Shown here: one piece after another, positions 1 through 8,288 of the stretch
Layout of the letters: each line of letters starts with the position of its first letter
Numbering within the stretch: position 1 is the first letter of the stretch
Virus record (IMG/VR): IMGVR_UViG_2654587570_000010
Location: 1 to 8,288 of that record
DNA from: a virus
Lineage: Duplodnaviria; Heunggongvirae; Uroviricota; Caudoviricetes
Direction: 5' to 3' (one strand)
DNA: 8,288 nt
Made by a program: the position numbers and the translations under genes
Notes under the pieces: model-generated
What the model was told of the DNA's origin: nothing
What the model saw: only the letters and a program-made list of their open reading frames with translations
Database searches by the model: none

Positions 1-43
1 CAGTAGCTGAACAGGAGGGACAGCTGATAGAAACAGAAGCCAC
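1..43 (-). CDS. insA: IS1 InsA, N-terminal fragment (about 14 codons, continues off-window)
   Basis: On the minus strand, GTG GCT TCT GTT TCT ATC AGC TGT CCC TCC TGT TCA GCT ACT translates to (M)ASVSISCPSCSAT, the remembered InsA N-terminus with its CxxC motif. The GTG start is at 41-43. Confidence 0.8.
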   Translation of the reverse strand, partial: MASVSISCPSCSAT

Positions 44-76
44 TGGAGCACCTCAAAAACACCATCATACACTAAA

Positions 77-98
<22 letters not shown>
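1..98 (-). mobile_element. IS1 insertion sequence, partial (left terminus; the rest lies beyond the window's left edge)
   Basis: The reverse complement of 1-98 reads GGTGATGCTGCCAACTTACTGATTTAGTGTATGATGGTGTTTTTGAGGTGCTCCAGTGGCTTCTG..., which matches the IS1 terminal inverted repeat and leader as I recall them. The outermost IS1 base is at 98. Match is from memory, not from a search. Confidence 0.9.
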
Positions 99-2681
<2,583 letters not shown>

Positions 2682-2870
2682 GCTTACCTTCCCTGAACGA
2701 GCTAACATAAATGCGCCCTTTCTAGCACAGCGAAAAAATGTAAATCCTGATAGCAATATGATTGAAAATTAATAACTTTTCGTTAGGCAGTTTTGGGTGT
2801 GAGTTGCAAGAGGGGAGACTACTGAATAACTCAAGTTTTATAATCGAGGGGAAAATGGTGATGGCGTTCA

Positions 2871-2905
2871 TAGCAAAACGCCCTCAACCATAAAGGTCGA
2901 GGGCG
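2871..2905 (-). terminator. Candidate rho-independent terminator downstream of tRNA-Asn
   Basis: On the minus strand, an 11-bp stem (plus 2879-2889 paired with 2895-2905, one G-U wobble) with a 5-nt loop is followed by UUUU (plus 2875-2878). It lies about 90 nt past the tRNA 3' end. Confidence 0.5.
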
Positions 2906-2993
2906 CTTAAGATGTTAAAAACCCGCTATCCGTTAATAAACAATGTTCAACTAAGGTTAGTGACATTGCGCTAAGAAGCGAATTTTTAGAATT

Positions 2994-3069
2994 TGGCTCC
3001 TCTGACTGGACTCGAACCAGTGACATACGGATTAACAGTCCGCCGTTCTACCGACTGAACTACAGAGGA
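2994..3069 (-). tRNA. asnT: tRNA-Asn (anticodon GUU), 76 nt with encoded CCA
   Basis: The reverse complement is UCCUCUGUAGUUCAGUCGGUAGAACGGCGGACUGUUAAUCCGUAUGUCACUGGUUCGAGUCCAGUCAGAGGAGCCA, with anticodon loop CUGUUAA. The asnT name is by position between yeeJ and mtfA. Confidence 0.95.
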
Positions 3070-3169
3070 ATCGTGTGAACGGGGCGAATATTACTTAGCG
3101 GTACCTTGTCTGTCAACACTAAATTTCATAAGTCATTTCAATTGGTTAATTAATCTGCAAAGTTGTTAA

Positions 3170-3967
3170 TTAATGAACATTCGTCGCCGAAAACGAGTCT
3201 GTATCATTAGTGCGATGCAGTCTCTGCAAAGGATCTTGTTGATAAAATTGGCAGAAACGTTGCCACAATGAAGGGAAACGAGGAGCAAAAAGTTCTGGGG
3301 CGCTAAAGAAATATTCAGAAAGTACGGCAAAACATTCAGCAGGATCACTGGCAGCATAAGCATCAATGCTCGCCGCATTCTCGCCAACTAATTCGATTTC
3401 TTCCTGAATGTTGTTCATTGCAGCATGAAGATCGTGTTCCCAGCCAGCAACCTCACGCAACGGAATAAAGGGAACTCCGCTGGCGCGATCGCCGTTACGG
3501 GTGTCCAGCTTATGAGCGACTTCATGAATAATCAGGTTAAAACCAGAAGCATCAAAAGAATCTTGTATATCCAACCAGTTCAAAACGATAGGCCCTTGCT
3601 GCCAGCTCTGACCTGACTGAACAATACGTTGGTTATGCACCAGACCGATATCGTCTTCCCATTCATCATCGACCACAAATGGCGCAGGATAAATTAAGAC
3701 TTCATGAAAACCATCCAGCCATTCCAGTCCTAACTCCAGAACGGGTAGGCAAAATAGAAGTGCTATCCGGCAGCTTCTTAATGAATCCAGTTCAAAGCCC
3801 TGTAAAGGAACAAGCCGCTTTTGCTGTAAAAAACGTTCGGCAAGAGTGACTAATTTGCTTTGTTCCTGTTCCGTCAGACACGTTAAAAGGGGGATCGATA
3901 GTGCTTCCTGCCAGGGAAGGGCAGTTTGATGTGCTGATTCTTGTACTTTCCAGGGCCACTTAATCAT
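3170..3967 (-). CDS. mtfA: MtfA (Mlc titration factor A), zinc-dependent peptidase, 265 aa
   Basis: The translation [28 protein letters not shown]...HEVAHKLD... contains an HExxH metallopeptidase motif and matches the remembered E. coli MtfA (YeeI) in sequence and length. The start is taken at the ATG at 3965-3967 rather than the upstream GTG used by the ORF track. Confidence 0.92.
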
Positions 3968-4060
3968 CGTTTTGCTCGCAAACTCGTCACTTGAACAAAA
4001 TTGCACGGACAGGGACTGTTAAAATGCCAAATTTCCTGGCATCATGGCAACCATCTGAAC

Positions 4061-4150
4061 GGAGAGATGCCGGAGCGGCTGAACGGACCGGTCTCGAAAA
4101 CCGGAGTGGGGGCAACTCCACCGGGGGTTCAAATCCCCCTCTCTCCGCCA
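4061..4150 (+). tRNA. serU: tRNA-Ser (anticodon CGA), 90 nt, long variable arm, encoded CCA
   Basis: The sequence GGAGAGAUGCCGGAGCGGCUGAACGGACCGGUCUCGAAAACCGG...GGGGGUUCAAAUCCCCCUCUCUCCGCCA has anticodon loop CUCGAAA and a class II variable arm. It is divergent from mtfA, as in the remembered K-12 order. Confidence 0.95.
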
Positions 4151-4195
4151 AAATTCAATCACTTACACATCATTAAGTCAGTGACAAAAATCACA

Positions 4196-4232
4196 CTTGG
4201 AATTACTTGGAATATTTTCTTGGAATATTTTC
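4196..4232. repeat. Three tandem direct repeats CTTGGAAT(T/A) (4196-4205, 4206-4219, 4220-4232), candidate integrase arm-type (P') binding sites in attL
   Basis: Repeats are directly visible: cttggaatta / cttggaatattttc / ttggaatattttc. They overlap the last codons of int (..PENIPRKYSK*) and lie between the tRNA 3' end and int, where P'1-P'3 sit in lambda attL. Function is inferred. Confidence 0.35.
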
Positions 4233-5228
4233 AGGTAACGGGATATTAAGTGTTGGTGAAACTTTAACCTTCCTGTCATAGATTAGCACTTGCCCTTCGG
4301 TTTTGTGACCAGAGAAAAGTTGCTTATCCCGGCTACTTCCTTCATAGTCTGAAATTCCTTTCGCCTTCAGATCATGAAAGGTGAAGTCGGTTAAAATACC
4401 TGAAATTTTTCCAGCACGATTTCTTGCTTCTACCCACATTTCGTTAAAGCCTTTGTACATATATCGGTTGCCGTATTGGTTGCTGATTACATAGGCGGAT
4501 GTTGGTAACTGTTTTGCTTTTTCGATCGCCGCCTGTAATCGTGGACTCCATGCTTTTATCTGTTTTTTCCCTGTTTTCCCTTGCTGGATAAAGATCCCGT
4601 CGTTTCCAATCTGCTCCCATTTCAGCGATAACACATCGGAAATCCTCGCTGCACACAGATAGGCAATTTCCATTGCGATGAAAACAGGAAGAGGTGCAAC
4701 GCTTAATACTGCCTGGTATTCTTTGTCGGTTACATATCGTTCGCGGTTTTTGGCCTTGAATTTACTTACACCTGCACATGGGTTAGCCTTCACGTACCCT
4801 CGCTCATACCCCCAACTGTAAACACGGGACATACTGCTTTTTTCATGGTTGGCTTGCGTTTTACTCTGCTCCCCTCTTTTGTCCATGTATCGACGGATGT
4901 GTTCTGGTTTTATGGAATCTGCCGGCACCTTACCGAATACGGCAAGCAACTTTTTTTGATGTTGCAGATAATCTTTTTGTGTTCTTGGGCTCAACTCACT
5001 GTAACAGGCGCTGGCGAGGAATTTTTCCCACAAGCGACCAAATGTCATTGCACGATCGCGGTTATTTACAGTTTCCTCATACTTTTTCCATAACGCGGCT
5101 AAACCATCTTTGATGGCGGTTAGTGTTACAGATTCTCTGGATGTTGGTTTCCATACATAACTATATTTATTTGGGTATACATTTGGAGGTAATCTTTCGT
5201 GTTCAGGGTTTTTCCTTCGTCTTCCCAT
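4203..5228 (-). CDS. int: Tyrosine site-specific recombinase, lambda-family phage integrase (341 aa)
   Basis: The N-terminus MGRRRKNPEHERLPPNVY resembles the lambda Int arm-binding N-terminal domain (MGRRRSHERRDLPPNLY, from memory). Length is typical, and the gene sits directly next to a tRNA 3' end. The ATG is at 5226-5228. Confidence 0.9.
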   Translation of the reverse strand: MGRRRKNPEHERLPPNVYPNKYSYVWKPTSRESVTLTAIKDGLAALWKKYEETVNNRDRAMTFGRLWEKFLASACYSELSPRTQKDYLQHQKKLLAVFGKVPADSIKPEHIRRYMDKRGEQSKTQANHEKSSMSRVYSWGYERGYVKANPCAGVSKFKAKNRERYVTDKEYQAVLSVAPLPVFIAMEIAYLCAARISDVLSLKWEQIGNDGIFIQQGKTGKKQIKAWSPRLQAAIEKAKQLPTSAYVISNQYGNRYMYKGFNEMWVEARNRAGKISGILTDFTFHDLKAKGISDYEGSSRDKQLFSGHKTEGQVLIYDRKVKVSPTLNIPLPENIPRKYSK

Positions 5229-5437
5229 CAGATCGCACCAAAATTCGGCTCTACCTCGCGTGGTGGTAAAGTTTTATTGCAGGTAAATAGATCCCGGCTG
5301 ACAATCGGTTTGCCACTGCGATTGGTATAGAACGGAAGCCCATTTTCTATTAACCATTTTCGCTGGTGGCTTGCATATTTGCAGCCCGTTAATATTAGCA
5401 ATTCATCTTCGGTTAAAAATAAGCTGCTCATAGCCAT
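5228..5437 (-). CDS. Small excisionase-like / DUF4224-like protein (69 aa), translationally coupled to int
   Basis: Its TGA stop overlaps the int ATG (minus-strand cTGATGg). The motif LTEDELLILTGCKYASHQRKWLIENGLPFYTNRSGKPIV resembles small winged-helix proteins found upstream of phage integrases. Assignment is by pattern and position only. Confidence 0.55.
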   Translation of the reverse strand: MAMSSLFLTEDELLILTGCKYASHQRKWLIENGLPFYTNRSGKPIVSRDLFTCNKTLPPREVEPNFGAI

Positions 5438-5489
5438 ATCTCATAACCGCCGCTAACTATATGCGGTTAGCGGCGATCAGGGTTGAACA

Positions 5490-7970
5490 TTAAAAATCAG
5501 CCTGATCCGGGATCATTTTTTGTATGGTGGCTGTAACGTATTTTGCCTGGTGGAGAGCGTCATCCAGTGCATTATGGCGTACGCCTTCGAATGGAATAGC
5601 TGTCTTGGCATCAAAGTCGATGGTTTTTCCCAGTTCGACGATTGTGCGCACGTCGCGATCGTTGCAGTAATGCCACGGGCAGGTGATCCCCTGCCGTTCA
5701 TATGAACGGCGTAAAATTGTGTTGTCGAAAGTTGCGCCATTGCCCCATACCTGCACGAATTTCTCATCTGAATGTTCGCTGATGAATTCCCGGAACCGTA
5801 AAAGGGCATCCTTCAGTTTTACCTGGTCTACCAAGATTGCAGATCTCGCCTCACTGGACTGCGCCAGCCACCATTCAATGGTGGAACCATCCGGAACAGC
5901 ACCTGTGGTCATTGCGTCAGCTAGGCTGATAACGATATAAAACGTTGGCCCGATTTCCCCTGTCTGCGGATCGAAAAACACAGCACCAATAACCACTATG
6001 GGCGCGTTGGTGTTAGTTCCCATCGTCTCGAGGTCGAGCATCAGGTGGTACCACATTCTGCTGGCGGATGTGGCTTTGTGATGATCGTTCGCCTTAATTA
6101 AGGTATTTGTCGTCTCGCCAGTTTCACCATCGCTATCGTGATAGTGATCATTGCCAGCGTCCTCCTTGTGATGATGTTCAGAGTCTTCCATTTCTTCCGG
6201 ATCTTTTTCCTGAGATTCGACCTGATTTTTTTCATTGAATGTTTCCTGGTATGTTGCGTCGCCCATCACCGCGCCACAATCAGGGCAGTTGCCGCCACCG
6301 CTCTGACCGCAGGTGGTGCAGATCTTTTCCTGTTCTTGTTGCGCTACTGGTTCAGGCTGTTTCGTTTCTGGCTCGTTTTGTAACGCATTTGGGCTGTTTT
6401 GTTCCGCTTTCTGGTCGTTCTGTTCCGTTTCTTGCTGGTTCTGGTTCACAGAATCGCGGGTTTCAATCCCCTTCACCCATTTCGGATCATTCGGGTCGCT
6501 AATCCCTGCAACAAATTCACCACGTGATACTGCAAGCAGTTCATCGGCGTCAGGCTGGCTGATATTGGCTGCCTGCATAATTTTGTTTACTTCGTCAGCG
6601 GTAACTTTTACCGGCCCTGGTTGTGCGGTCGTGTCAGATGCACCAGTATTTTGTTGTGAACCTGAGTATGTACCGTTTTTGCGGGCGAAATATTCTTCTT
6701 TCGTGATTTCAGTAGCCCCGGCAGCCAGTGCCTTATCCAGACCAGAAAGTTTGTTTGCGCGACCGTATTTTTTGCCACCCTTGTCGGTGAAGAGGAAGTA
6801 GAACGGCCCCTCACGCTCTACAGATGGTTCGACTTCCACTTTGCATTCGGTTTTTTCGTTGTCCTGAATTGCCGTTTCCACTGCATCAGTTTCTGGTACT
6901 GGCGACGAGAGAGTATCAGTTGCGCTCTGATTTCTTCCTTCATCTTCAAACACGCCCTTTGTAGTCAGGTATTCAGTAATGTATTTGTTCAGTGCCACAG
7001 GGTCTTTGTGAATGTCGATCGGACGTTCACGGACAAGGCCAAAAATAGTCTGGCGGTCGTAGCGAAGGGCATCAGGCTGTTTGCGCATTGATGCCGAGAT
7101 ACGCTTCCAGTCTTCGCGGTCGTTGTCGATAACTTCATTTTTTGCCCAGCGATGGATGCTGCCGTCAATGTTTCCGGCATCCACATCACCAGGCCAGAGA
7201 GCGTAGGCCAGTTCGTCATCCAGTGTTTTCCATGTCTGCTTGTATTCGCGATGAATGGCAGCAATGACCGGGCTGATTTTTCCTGTTGAATTTTCAGTGT
7301 GCTGTTGATTGGCTCTGGCGCGGGCGAGATCAACAACAGACGTGTATTTTCCGGTTTCCTTGCGTTCACCTTCGCGACGTTTTTTCCAGATGCGCATCTT
7401 TGCCTGAATTTCGGGCCATTTGGCACCAGGCTTACATTTATGCTTAACCCACCCGATGGCATGCAGCTTAAGCTCCGGATACATGGCGTTAACTTCTGGC
7501 ATTTTCATCAACGCTTCAACGATATGTCCGTCGAATGTTGCCATGTCTTCCTGCAACAGTTCCTGCGCGCTAATCACCATATCAACGGTGATGTTTTCAC
7601 ATGTGTCGAACTTAACCATGACAGCGTTCTGTACTTCAGGGGCCAGCTTGTCAAAAGTGACGTTCATAGGATCTGATTCAGTCTCAACCGGGACAAAGGA
7701 AGCAGACTCCTCATCCCAGCGGTTTTCCTGCATAAATTCAGCATCCCAGGAATCGAGGGCAGGGCGGGGTATACCGGGTTTATCCTCGCAAACAAGAAAT
7801 TTATAAGCGCAGTCCTGAGCAGCCGGATAATGTTCCAGGAATTGCCAGTGAAATTTTGCGCGGGCGCGACGTTCATCACCGGCTTCAATGGCTGTGGCTA
7901 CAGGTTTAGCGCCTTCTTGTTTTATTGCCTGTTCGTCCGGAATGGCAGCGCAAATAAAGACTTTACTCAT
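5490..7970 (-). CDS. Prophage exonuclease (826 aa): RecE-like central region with C4 zinc ribbon, fused to a C-terminal DnaQ-like DEDDh 3'-5' exonuclease domain
   Basis: ATG at 7968-7970 with a GAGGT Shine-Dalgarno about 9 nt upstream. Residues about 476-620 (ADELLAVSRGEFVAGISDPNDPKWVKGIETRD...CTTCGQSGGGNCPDCGAVMGDATYQETF...) resemble the central region of Rac RecE as I remember it. Residues about 639-826 carry DEDDh motifs: LDLETMG, WGNGATFD, HNALDDA. Confidence 0.8.
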   Translation of the reverse strand: MSKVFICAAIPDEQAIKQEGAKPVATAIEAGDERRARAKFHWQFLEHYPAAQDCAYKFLVCEDKPGIPRPALDSWDAEFMQENRWDEESASFVPVETESDPMNVTFDKLAPEVQNAVMVKFDTCENITVDMVISAQELLQEDMATFDGHIVEALMKMPEVNAMYPELKLHAIGWVKHKCKPGAKWPEIQAKMRIWKKRREGERKETGKYTSVVDLARARANQQHTENSTGKISPVIAAIHREYKQTWKTLDDELAYALWPGDVDAGNIDGSIHRWAKNEVIDNDREDWKRISASMRKQPDALRYDRQTIFGLVRERPIDIHKDPVALNKYITEYLTTKGVFEDEGRNQSATDTLSSPVPETDAVETAIQDNEKTECKVEVEPSVEREGPFYFLFTDKGGKKYGRANKLSGLDKALAAGATEITKEEYFARKNGTYSGSQQNTGASDTTAQPGPVKVTADEVNKIMQAANISQPDADELLAVSRGEFVAGISDPNDPKWVKGIETRDSVNQNQQETEQNDQKAEQNSPNALQNEPETKQPEPVAQQEQEKICTTCGQSGGGNCPDCGAVMGDATYQETFNEKNQVESQEKDPEEMEDSEHHHKEDAGNDHYHDSDGETGETTNTLIKANDHHKATSASRMWYHLMLDLETMGTNTNAPIVVIGAVFFDPQTGEIGPTFYIVISLADAMTTGAVPDGSTIEWWLAQSSEARSAILVDQVKLKDALLRFREFISEHSDEKFVQVWGNGATFDNTILRRSYERQGITCPWHYCNDRDVRTIVELGKTIDFDAKTAIPFEGVRHNALDDALHQAKYVTATIQKMIPDQADF

Positions 7971-8063
7971 TTTGTTTTAACCTCATGACAGATTTAAGGG
8001 TGAACAAATCCCTGCCATTGCTGGCATATAAGAATGAAATCGGATGTTTATTACGGAACTGTT

Positions 8064-8255
8064 TTAAAGACCTGCCGGGATTTCGTTATTATCCTGGTGA
8101 ATAACTTTATCGACCGGGTAACAGTTACCGGGAATTTTCTGTTCGGTTGCTGCAGTCACACACTCCTGCATTGTCCTGTGAACACTGATTGCAATATCAA
8201 CTGGCTCTCCGGAAACAAGAAAAACTGTCAGAACAAGTGCAAATGCTGTATTCAT
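8064..8255 (-). CDS. Small hypothetical prophage protein with hydrophobic N-terminus (63 aa from MNTAF; the ORF track starts 3 codons earlier at 8264)
   Basis: Open frame with N-terminal hydrophobic stretch MNTAFALVLTVFLVSG, possibly a signal peptide or membrane anchor. AAGGA lies about 8 nt upstream of the second ATG (8253-8255), which favours that start. It is co-oriented upstream of the exonuclease gene. Confidence 0.45.
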   Translation of the reverse strand: MNTAFALVLTVFLVSGEPVDIAISVHRTMQECVTAATEQKIPGNCYPVDKVIHQDNNEIPAGL

Positions 8256-8288
8256 TGCCAGCATCCTTTTTGTATCGGACGTAAACGG

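Follow-up and report, generated by a model that had tools for sequence, protein, structure and literature searches.

Left end of an Sp14-type prophage in serU

The window analyzed here is an 8,288-nt stretch of viral DNA (Caudoviricetes; IMG/VR record IMGVR_UViG_2654587570_000010, positions 1 to 8,288), and its segment 4061-4232 is very probably the left attachment site (attL, B-O-P') of an Sp14-type lambdoid prophage integrated into the tRNA gene serU. A first-pass annotation, made from the sequence without database searches, had described the region as attL of a serU-integrated lambdoid element. This description is upheld by a second serU 3' segment at the opposite end of the prophage in related genomes, by the empty site in Escherichia coli K-12 and by the identity of the junction with that of prophage Sp14 of strain Sakai.

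The tRNA-Ser(CGA) gene serU occupies positions 4061-4150 on the plus strand (ARAGORN, Rfam RF00005), and int, the gene for a lambda-type tyrosine integrase of 341 aa, lies at 4203-5228 on the minus strand (list of open reading frames (ORFs), Pfam, PHROGs, and PDB search). The int stop codon TAA is at 4203-4205, which leaves a spacer of 52 bp (4151-4202) behind the serU end at 4150; the gap first noted between the two genes is thus borne out by ARAGORN, Rfam, and the ORF list. A scan of 3900-4500 for terminators and promoters revealed none between serU and int, and Rfam matched two tRNAs in the window and nothing else.

Sakai Sp14 (NC_002695.2, 2668145-2712172; int ECs_2773) is inserted at the same serU/yodB site and is annotated as 'prophage Sp14, lambda-like phage', reaching from yodB to serU. 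It is identical to the window over 4061-4243, including all three repeats of the P' arm described below. The two integrases agree in 329 of 341 residues (96.5%) and have the same C-terminal end, and the order of the xis-like gene, the exonuclease gene, and dicB is the same. The elements differ in that identity drops to about 95.6% in the int-xis part and to about 85.6% in the exonuclease part. Furthermore, the complete genomes closest to the window are non-O157 or O55:H7 strains, unlike Sakai. To the right of serU, a complete lambda-like prophage follows in near-identical genomes. It comprises a CI-type regulatory region, Q, genes for lysis and terminase, and head and tail genes of the lambda type, which bears out the lambdoid nature of the element. 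The same prophages carry the type III secretion system effector genes NleG, EspW, EspJ, and TccP.

Occupancy of serU and the repeat at the far prophage end

In K-12 MG1655, serU is followed by yodB and zinT, in agreement with the neighbor of serU that the first-pass annotation had given for K-12 (yodB), and the match to the window reaches only as far as the 3' end of the tRNA. Past the tRNA, K-12 and the window share only a ragged 15-nt resemblance; BLAST extends into it because both phage and host have a site there that resembles the consensus of integration host factor (IHF). The K-12 DNA just after serU (L003:3205-3217; L006:1565-1577) reads TATCAATGACTTA, which matches the IHF consensus perfectly and is as far from the tRNA end as the IHF-like site at 4153-4165 of the window.

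In a search of 5426 complete E. coli genomes, the P' arm of the window adjoins serU in 1152, and at least 80% of the whole window is common to 494. The element is thus an insertion relative to K-12, as the first-pass annotation stated, but with 1152 of 5426 genomes occupied in this way it is common and lineage-wide or lineage-associated rather than strain-specific.

With K-12 DNA downstream of serU as the probe, the occupied genomes split into two classes according to the partial tRNA gene beside yodB, which begins at tRNA position 29/30 in the first class and at position 77 in the second. The first class takes in O157:H7, whose attL matches the window. In O157:H7 strain 17B6-2, serU positions 30-90 (window 4090-4150, 61 bp, reading GGTCTCGAAAACCGGAGT...CCGCCA) are repeated next to yodB (L006:1501-1561). 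The same 61-bp repeat lies next to yodB at the right attachment site (attR) of Sakai and at L005:48077-48137, the junction between tandem prophages of O55:H7 strain DEC5B. The second copy of the serU 3' segment, for which the first-pass annotation had proposed to search at the far prophage end, is therefore present there in O157:H7.

Two further arrangements were found at serU. An unrelated element in strain NS-NP030 (L007:110-1336), representing the second class, repeats tRNA positions 77-90 only (14 bp) and has its integrase, of 408 aa, on the yodB side. O55:H7 DEC5B harbors two prophages with related integrases in tandem at serU (L005:48077-49215), and the junction between them mimics a phage attachment site (attP) in that it comprises a P arm, the 61-bp core, and a P' arm.

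Position of the crossover

ARAGORN and Rfam recognize a complete tRNA-Ser at the junction, i.e., an intact tRNA gene is reconstituted. Its anticodon stem-loop spans 4088-4104, with CCGGT at 4088-4092, the loop CTCGAAA at 4093-4099, the anticodon at 4095-4097, and ACCGG at 4100-4104. The identity block, present as a direct repeat at the other end, covers tRNA positions 30-90 (4090-4150) according to the junction alignment and to BLAST matches of attR that start at 29/30. Within this block, the window differs from K-12 at G4108 (K-12 A) and C4119 (K-12 T), two positions of the plus strand that pair in the variable arm of serU, so that the change is compensatory. The G..C pair is found at attL of the window, Sakai, and DEC5B as well as at the phage-phage junction, whereas the yodB-side copy in O157 attR and the K-12 attB have A..T. 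It is also found in 83 of the 86 IMG/VR contigs that carry the P' arm, whereas it is rare at empty sites (only 60-105 of about 4300). The G..C allele is thus essentially phage-borne. Because of this, and because the identity block starts at 4090, we infer that strand exchange takes place between 4090 and 4107, in the anticodon stem-loop and to the left of the first allele difference at 4108.

These data suggest the following course of integration. The attP of the phage would carry a copy of serU positions 30-90, and a lambda-type integrase (Int) would exchange strands in the anticodon stem-loop. Integration would rebuild serU as a chimera, in which the host supplies 29 nt (positions 1-29) and the phage 61 nt (positions 30-90); the host's own 3' segment would be displaced to the far prophage end, beside yodB. 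Sublocation classes of elements in tRNA genes, including one with crossover in the anticodon loop, were reportedly set out by Williams in Nucleic Acids Res in 2002. The serU junction resembles the anticodon-loop class, since its repeat covers the tRNA from the anticodon stem through the 3' end, the stem is symmetric around a 7-nt loop, and the tRNA appears to be rebuilt from phage DNA.

According to the first-pass annotation, the attachment core probably overlapped the 3' portion of the tRNA, and the short palindrome AGTCAGTGAC between the tRNA and the repeats could be a core-type or accessory site. Overlap of the core with the tRNA holds. An exchange at or beyond the tRNA 3' end very probably does not, as the alleles point to the anticodon stem-loop, at or to the left of 4100, where the interval flagged in that annotation starts. 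Many tRNA-integrating elements do use the 3' end, in E. coli the serU elements of the second class have a repeat of tRNA positions 77-90 only, and the region of the palindrome resembles the IHF consensus with two mismatches. However, the repeat belonging to this integrase type starts at tRNA position 29/30, and the distribution of G..C and A..T sets the exchange to the left of 4108. No observation speaks for the palindrome as a core-type site. AGTCAGTGAC is present at 4176-4185, not as a 10-bp palindrome but as the inverted repeat GTCA-g-TGAC (4177-4185) with 4-bp arms and a 1-nt spacer, to which no function is assigned and which holds the stop codon of a 345-aa int allele discussed below. It is no more than expected by chance because the window contains 32 such 4-1-4 repeats, one per 259 bp. 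In addition, its right arm is changed from TGAC to TGAT in the sister attP of the second DEC5B prophage, and it lies about 80 bp from the inferred crossover. Being of chance frequency and not conserved, it was rejected as a meaningful feature and as a core-type site. A crossover at or beyond the 3' end together with a role of the palindrome is thus already largely refuted, and we regard it as highly improbable.

P' arm repeats and architecture of attP

All three copies of the octamer CTTGGAAT in the window lie to the right of the tRNA (at 4196, 4206, and 4219, within 4196-4226); 0.37 copies would be expected. The 13-mer CTTGGAATATTTT occurs twice, as a perfect 13-bp tandem at 4206-4232. The repeats at 4196-4231 are probable arm-type Int sites. 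Putative P'1 (CTTGGAAT, 4196-4203, plus strand), recognized by motif count, recurrence on the P arm, and presence in relatives, abuts and overlaps the int stop codon. Putative P'2 (CTTGGAATATTTT, 4206-4218, plus strand) codes, when read on the minus strand, for the last four Int residues, K-Y-S-K. Putative P'3, the second copy of the 13-mer (4219-4231, plus strand), encodes N-I-P-R of Int and belongs to a tandem whose copy number varies from 1 to 3 among relatives. The P' arm thus leads from the tRNA end into int, as the first-pass annotation had proposed, with a weak IHF-like site followed by three direct CTTGGAAT(ATTTT) repeats. The repeats reach across the int stop codon and the nine codons before it, and they are most likely bound by the N-terminal domain of Int.

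In related prophages, CTTGGAAT recurs on the P arm, in direct orientation at about -114 and inverted at about -48 relative to the start of the 61-bp repeat. Four aligned P-arm lineages are unrelated further upstream, and their homology starts exactly at GCTTGGAATATTCT. The conserved islands on this arm are the GCTTGGAATATTCT site, an inverted ATTTATTCCAA, and two perfect IHF consensus blocks at -86 and -31; perfect IHF consensus sites number three in the whole 49.9-kb DEC5B locus. On the P' arm of the window, the one IHF-like sequence found by consensus search is ATTCAATCACTTA at 4153-4165 (plus strand), one mismatch from WATCAANNNNTTR. This weak match is the best candidate for H' in the window. 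Taken with the P arm, which is known from related genomes only, these elements would give attP a lambda-like layout of P1-H1-P2-H2-core-(tRNA 3' copy)-H'?-P'1-P'2-P'3.

The strongest support for arm-type sites comes from distant relatives. Integrases of 61-67% identity in Salmonella (L101), Siccibacter (L103), and Klebsiella (L105) each have three copies of ATTCCAAG at the int 3' end, the spacing of about 13 and about 11 bp within the triplet is kept, and the first copy encodes Y-S-K and the stop codon. In Klebsiella, all three copies read ATTCTAAG. Such a concerted C-to-T change is the pattern expected if the sites co-evolve with the domain that binds them. The CTTGGAAT(ATTTT) repeats could instead be a slippage-prone microsatellite at the int 3' end with no part in recombination; their copy number does vary from 1 to 3, and the arm-site role is deduced from sequence. 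However, the octamer recurs on the other arm at fixed distances and in both orientations, within conserved islands of otherwise diverged sequence, triplets persist in relatives of 61-67% identity, with the concerted change in all three Klebsiella copies, and the N-terminus of Int is lambda-like, of the arm-binding type. A mere microsatellite is therefore unlikely, and we favor arm-type sites.

The integrase and the putative excisionase

Int matches PF00589 (44 bits, cut-off 27), PF22022, and PF14659 in Pfam as well as integrase families of PHROGs, and its best solved structure is lambda Int over the full length. Its catalytic residues are R195, K218, H285, K288 (putative), H308, and Y317, of which R195, K218, H285, H308, and Y317 align with R212, K235, H308, H333, and Y342 of lambda Int and are invariant in 25 family members. 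At the sequence level, residues 1-60 align with residues 1-60 of lambda Int (MGRRR..LPPNVY versus MGRRRSHERRDLPPNLY), i.e., with the arm-binding domain.

Next to int, a putative excisionase (Xis) of 69 aa containing DUF4224 is encoded at 5228-5437 on the minus strand (Pfam PF13986, PHROG phrog_1266 'excisionase'), and its stop codon overlaps the int start. The pairing of a DUF4224 ORF with int is kept in distant relatives. Excision would need Int, with or without this adjacent Xis-like protein. The integrase relatives at 61-67% identity in Salmonella, Siccibacter, and Klebsiella are convergent to a tRNA-Ser gene with anticodon TGA, 67 bp away, and have the same DUF4224 partner. The clade to which Int belongs thus appears to be specialized on tRNA-Ser genes.

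The element shares several features with lambda. Int is heterobivalent and aligns over its full length with the lambda Int structures 1Z1B and 1Z1G (E = 1e-12), and int and the putative xis adjoin attP. The predicted site layout would match that of lambda as well: on the P arm, two sites each for arm binding and for IHF, and on the P' arm, three direct arm sites by the int stop codon. Unlike lambda, which uses an intergenic attB between gal and bio, the element targets a tRNA gene, and the identity block measures 61 bp instead of 15 bp. Further differences are the distance of about 95 bp from the core to P'1, the arm motif CTTGGAAT, a Lys in place of lambda R311, and a DUF4224 protein in the place of lambda Xis.

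Circular Sp14 DNA has been detected by polymerase chain reaction (PCR) across the attP junction, at a low level, after mitomycin C treatment (Asadulghani et al., PMC2669165). This is the PCR for the excised circle that the first-pass annotation had suggested as a check, and it is thus already published for Sakai Sp14. The Int protein of Sp14 was judged intact in the same study (PMC2669165). Integrations in many lineages, like the published excision of Sp14, imply that integrases of this family are active.

Search for attP outside the chromosome

A megablast search with the serU-int-xis segment against 50,697 phage records returned two full matches, vB_EcoS-689R5 and vB_EcoM-606R7, both with the whole tRNA gene. 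The former was considered as a free phage carrying attP and rejected, as it also holds the host genes mtfA and asnT and is thus an excerpt of a prophage. The exact pattern of P arm, core, and P' arm had no match in IMG/VR. A looser core-P' pattern was found in 87 IMG/VR contigs, and in eight of these a homologous P arm directly adjoins the core and the P' arm; the left arm of a ninth (L067) is unrelated.

Phages ev099 and mEp332 were also examined as carriers of attP and rejected, since they hold a fossil attR and K-12 chromosomal DNA instead. In ev099 (NC_049953.1, L009:2306-2750) and mEp332 (L008), a P arm 95% identical to that of DEC5B is joined to part of serU in its host-type form, followed by over 150 bp of K-12 chromosome from the yodB side. 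Beyond the fossil attR follow AraC and transposase genes, and the integrase gene of ev099 is 2.4 kb away. The fossil attR looks like an imprecise excision that became fixed in these phages.

Observations that weigh against an Sp14-type attL

Several observations speak against the interpretation of 4061-4232 as attL of an Sp14-type prophage or limit it. The far end of the window's own prophage lies outside the 8.3 kb, and attR was seen in related genomes only. In the closest genome, PS1Thumoskin9 (99.5% identical; NZ_CP180607.1, 810547-860140), the serU prophage ends at potB-potA-pepT and not at yodB, which implies that two lambdoid prophages recombined and that a large rearrangement resulted. 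Because the prophage of the closest genome ends at potB, the element may be rearranged in the source strain of the window, too. A free-phage genome with a contiguous attP was not found among the 50,697 phage records or by the pattern search of IMG/VR, and the eight contigs with contiguous P arm, core, and P' arm could be junctions of tandem prophages. Xis of Sp14 was judged probably non-functional and excision of Sp14 is weak (PMC2669165).

The allele pattern is strong but not absolute, as the host-type A..T turns up in one attL contig and G..C at some empty sites. The use of G..C versus A..T as an absolute marker of phage and host DNA was dropped for these reasons. G..C occurs at only 60-105 of about 4300 empty serU sites, many of them apparently clonal; the count is kept as a range because the coverage threshold is confounded by attL itself, which covers 81% of the query. 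Strain FFFEB2 (L098:712-841) and at least 60 other genomes have such sites, with yodB directly downstream of serU and phage-type G..C. These sites cannot derive from excision by Int at the anticodon loop, which would restore A..T. This suggests either that the prophage was lost by homologous recombination inside the 61-bp repeat or that G..C is a rare host allele.

Int has K288 (codon 4365-4367), in the motif H285-D-L-K288, where lambda has the catalytic Arg311. K288 is invariant in 25 family members across Enterobacterales, within the motif FHD[LI]KAK. Because the Lys is invariant down to 55% identity, K288 reads as a family trait and not as a lesion or defect, with a putative role in catalysis.

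RefSeq annotation by the Prokaryotic Genome Annotation Pipeline (PGAP) labels the near-identical int genes of PS1Thumoskin9, D1, and DEC5B, which end 27 nt from serU, as 'frameshifted'. The label arises because the copy number of the 13-mer shifts the C-terminal reading frame of Int. One copy gives a protein of 345 aa ending in ...PENIPSNSKCDFCH, two copies give 341 aa ending in ...PENIPRKYSK, and three copies give 360 aa. The two-copy allele accounts for about 78 of 86 contigs, the one-copy allele for four, and the three-copy allele for two. The 341-aa form and the alternative tail differ only in residues past the catalytic Tyr317.

The junction could on these grounds be a dead fossil, in which a 13-bp tandem duplication at 4206-4232 turned int into a frameshifted pseudogene and left the prophage unable to excise. 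The label on three near-identical int genes, the 345-aa protein that the one-copy allele would yield, and the right end of the closest genome, rearranged to potB, would fit this explanation. Against it, the two-copy allele is in the large majority (about 78 of 86 contigs), and the alteration affects only the last 5-9 residues, 24 residues beyond Tyr317. Although the family as a whole does not conserve the tail, relatives of 61-68% identity repeatedly end in ...YSK, i.e., in the two-copy frame. Moreover, the Int of Sakai Sp14, with the same ...PENIPRKYSK end, was judged intact, and Sp14 circles were detected (PMC2669165). A dead fossil therefore appears quite unlikely. The stop codon at 4203 is therefore authentic, and the pseudogene label is probably an artifact of comparison with a minority allele.

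The tail of lambda Int past the catalytic Tyr controls cleavage. If the 13-bp unit slips between one, two, and three copies, the number of arm sites and the Int tail (345, 341, and 360 aa) would change together, which could, because of this role of the lambda tail, act as a heritable dial on the efficiency of integration and excision. The dial would belong to a widespread Int family in which Lys naturally replaces the canonical second catalytic Arg. We consider such tuning a long shot.

Flanking genes

Beyond the putative excisionase gene lies a gene for a prophage early-left exonuclease of 826 aa (5490-7970, minus strand; Pfam, PHROGs), which is labeled as an exonuclease in L001, L005, and L100 and is followed by a DUF1482 gene. 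To the left of serU, the bacterial (B) side of attL carries mtfA (3170-3967, minus strand; Pfam and genome comparison), asnT, and yeeJ as host genes. Positions 1-97 of the window are a terminal end of IS1, 100% identical to the IS1A/IS1B ends on thousands of plasmids, which breaks yeeJ at position 98. Because of this IS1 end, the window yields about 105,000 scattered matches, and every chromosomal match begins at 98.

Implications

The junction is the attL of a known prophage type. Integration of prophages at serU is on record for O157:H7, O145:H28, and O121:H19 (PMC8190617, PMC7067040, PMC8767318), and excision of Sp14 has been published. Minor new details are the likely position of the crossover, the putative arm sites within the 3' codons of int, the variation in 13-mer copy number, and the misleading pseudogene label. 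They leave the picture of site-specific recombination and of genome structure in Shiga toxin-producing E. coli unchanged and are useful for calling prophage boundaries, for correcting the RefSeq label 'frameshifted integrase', and for integration-site typing. The attL marks the start of an effector-carrying lambdoid prophage of enterohemorrhagic and enteropathogenic E. coli lineages, and the serU expressed in lysogens would be partly phage-encoded.

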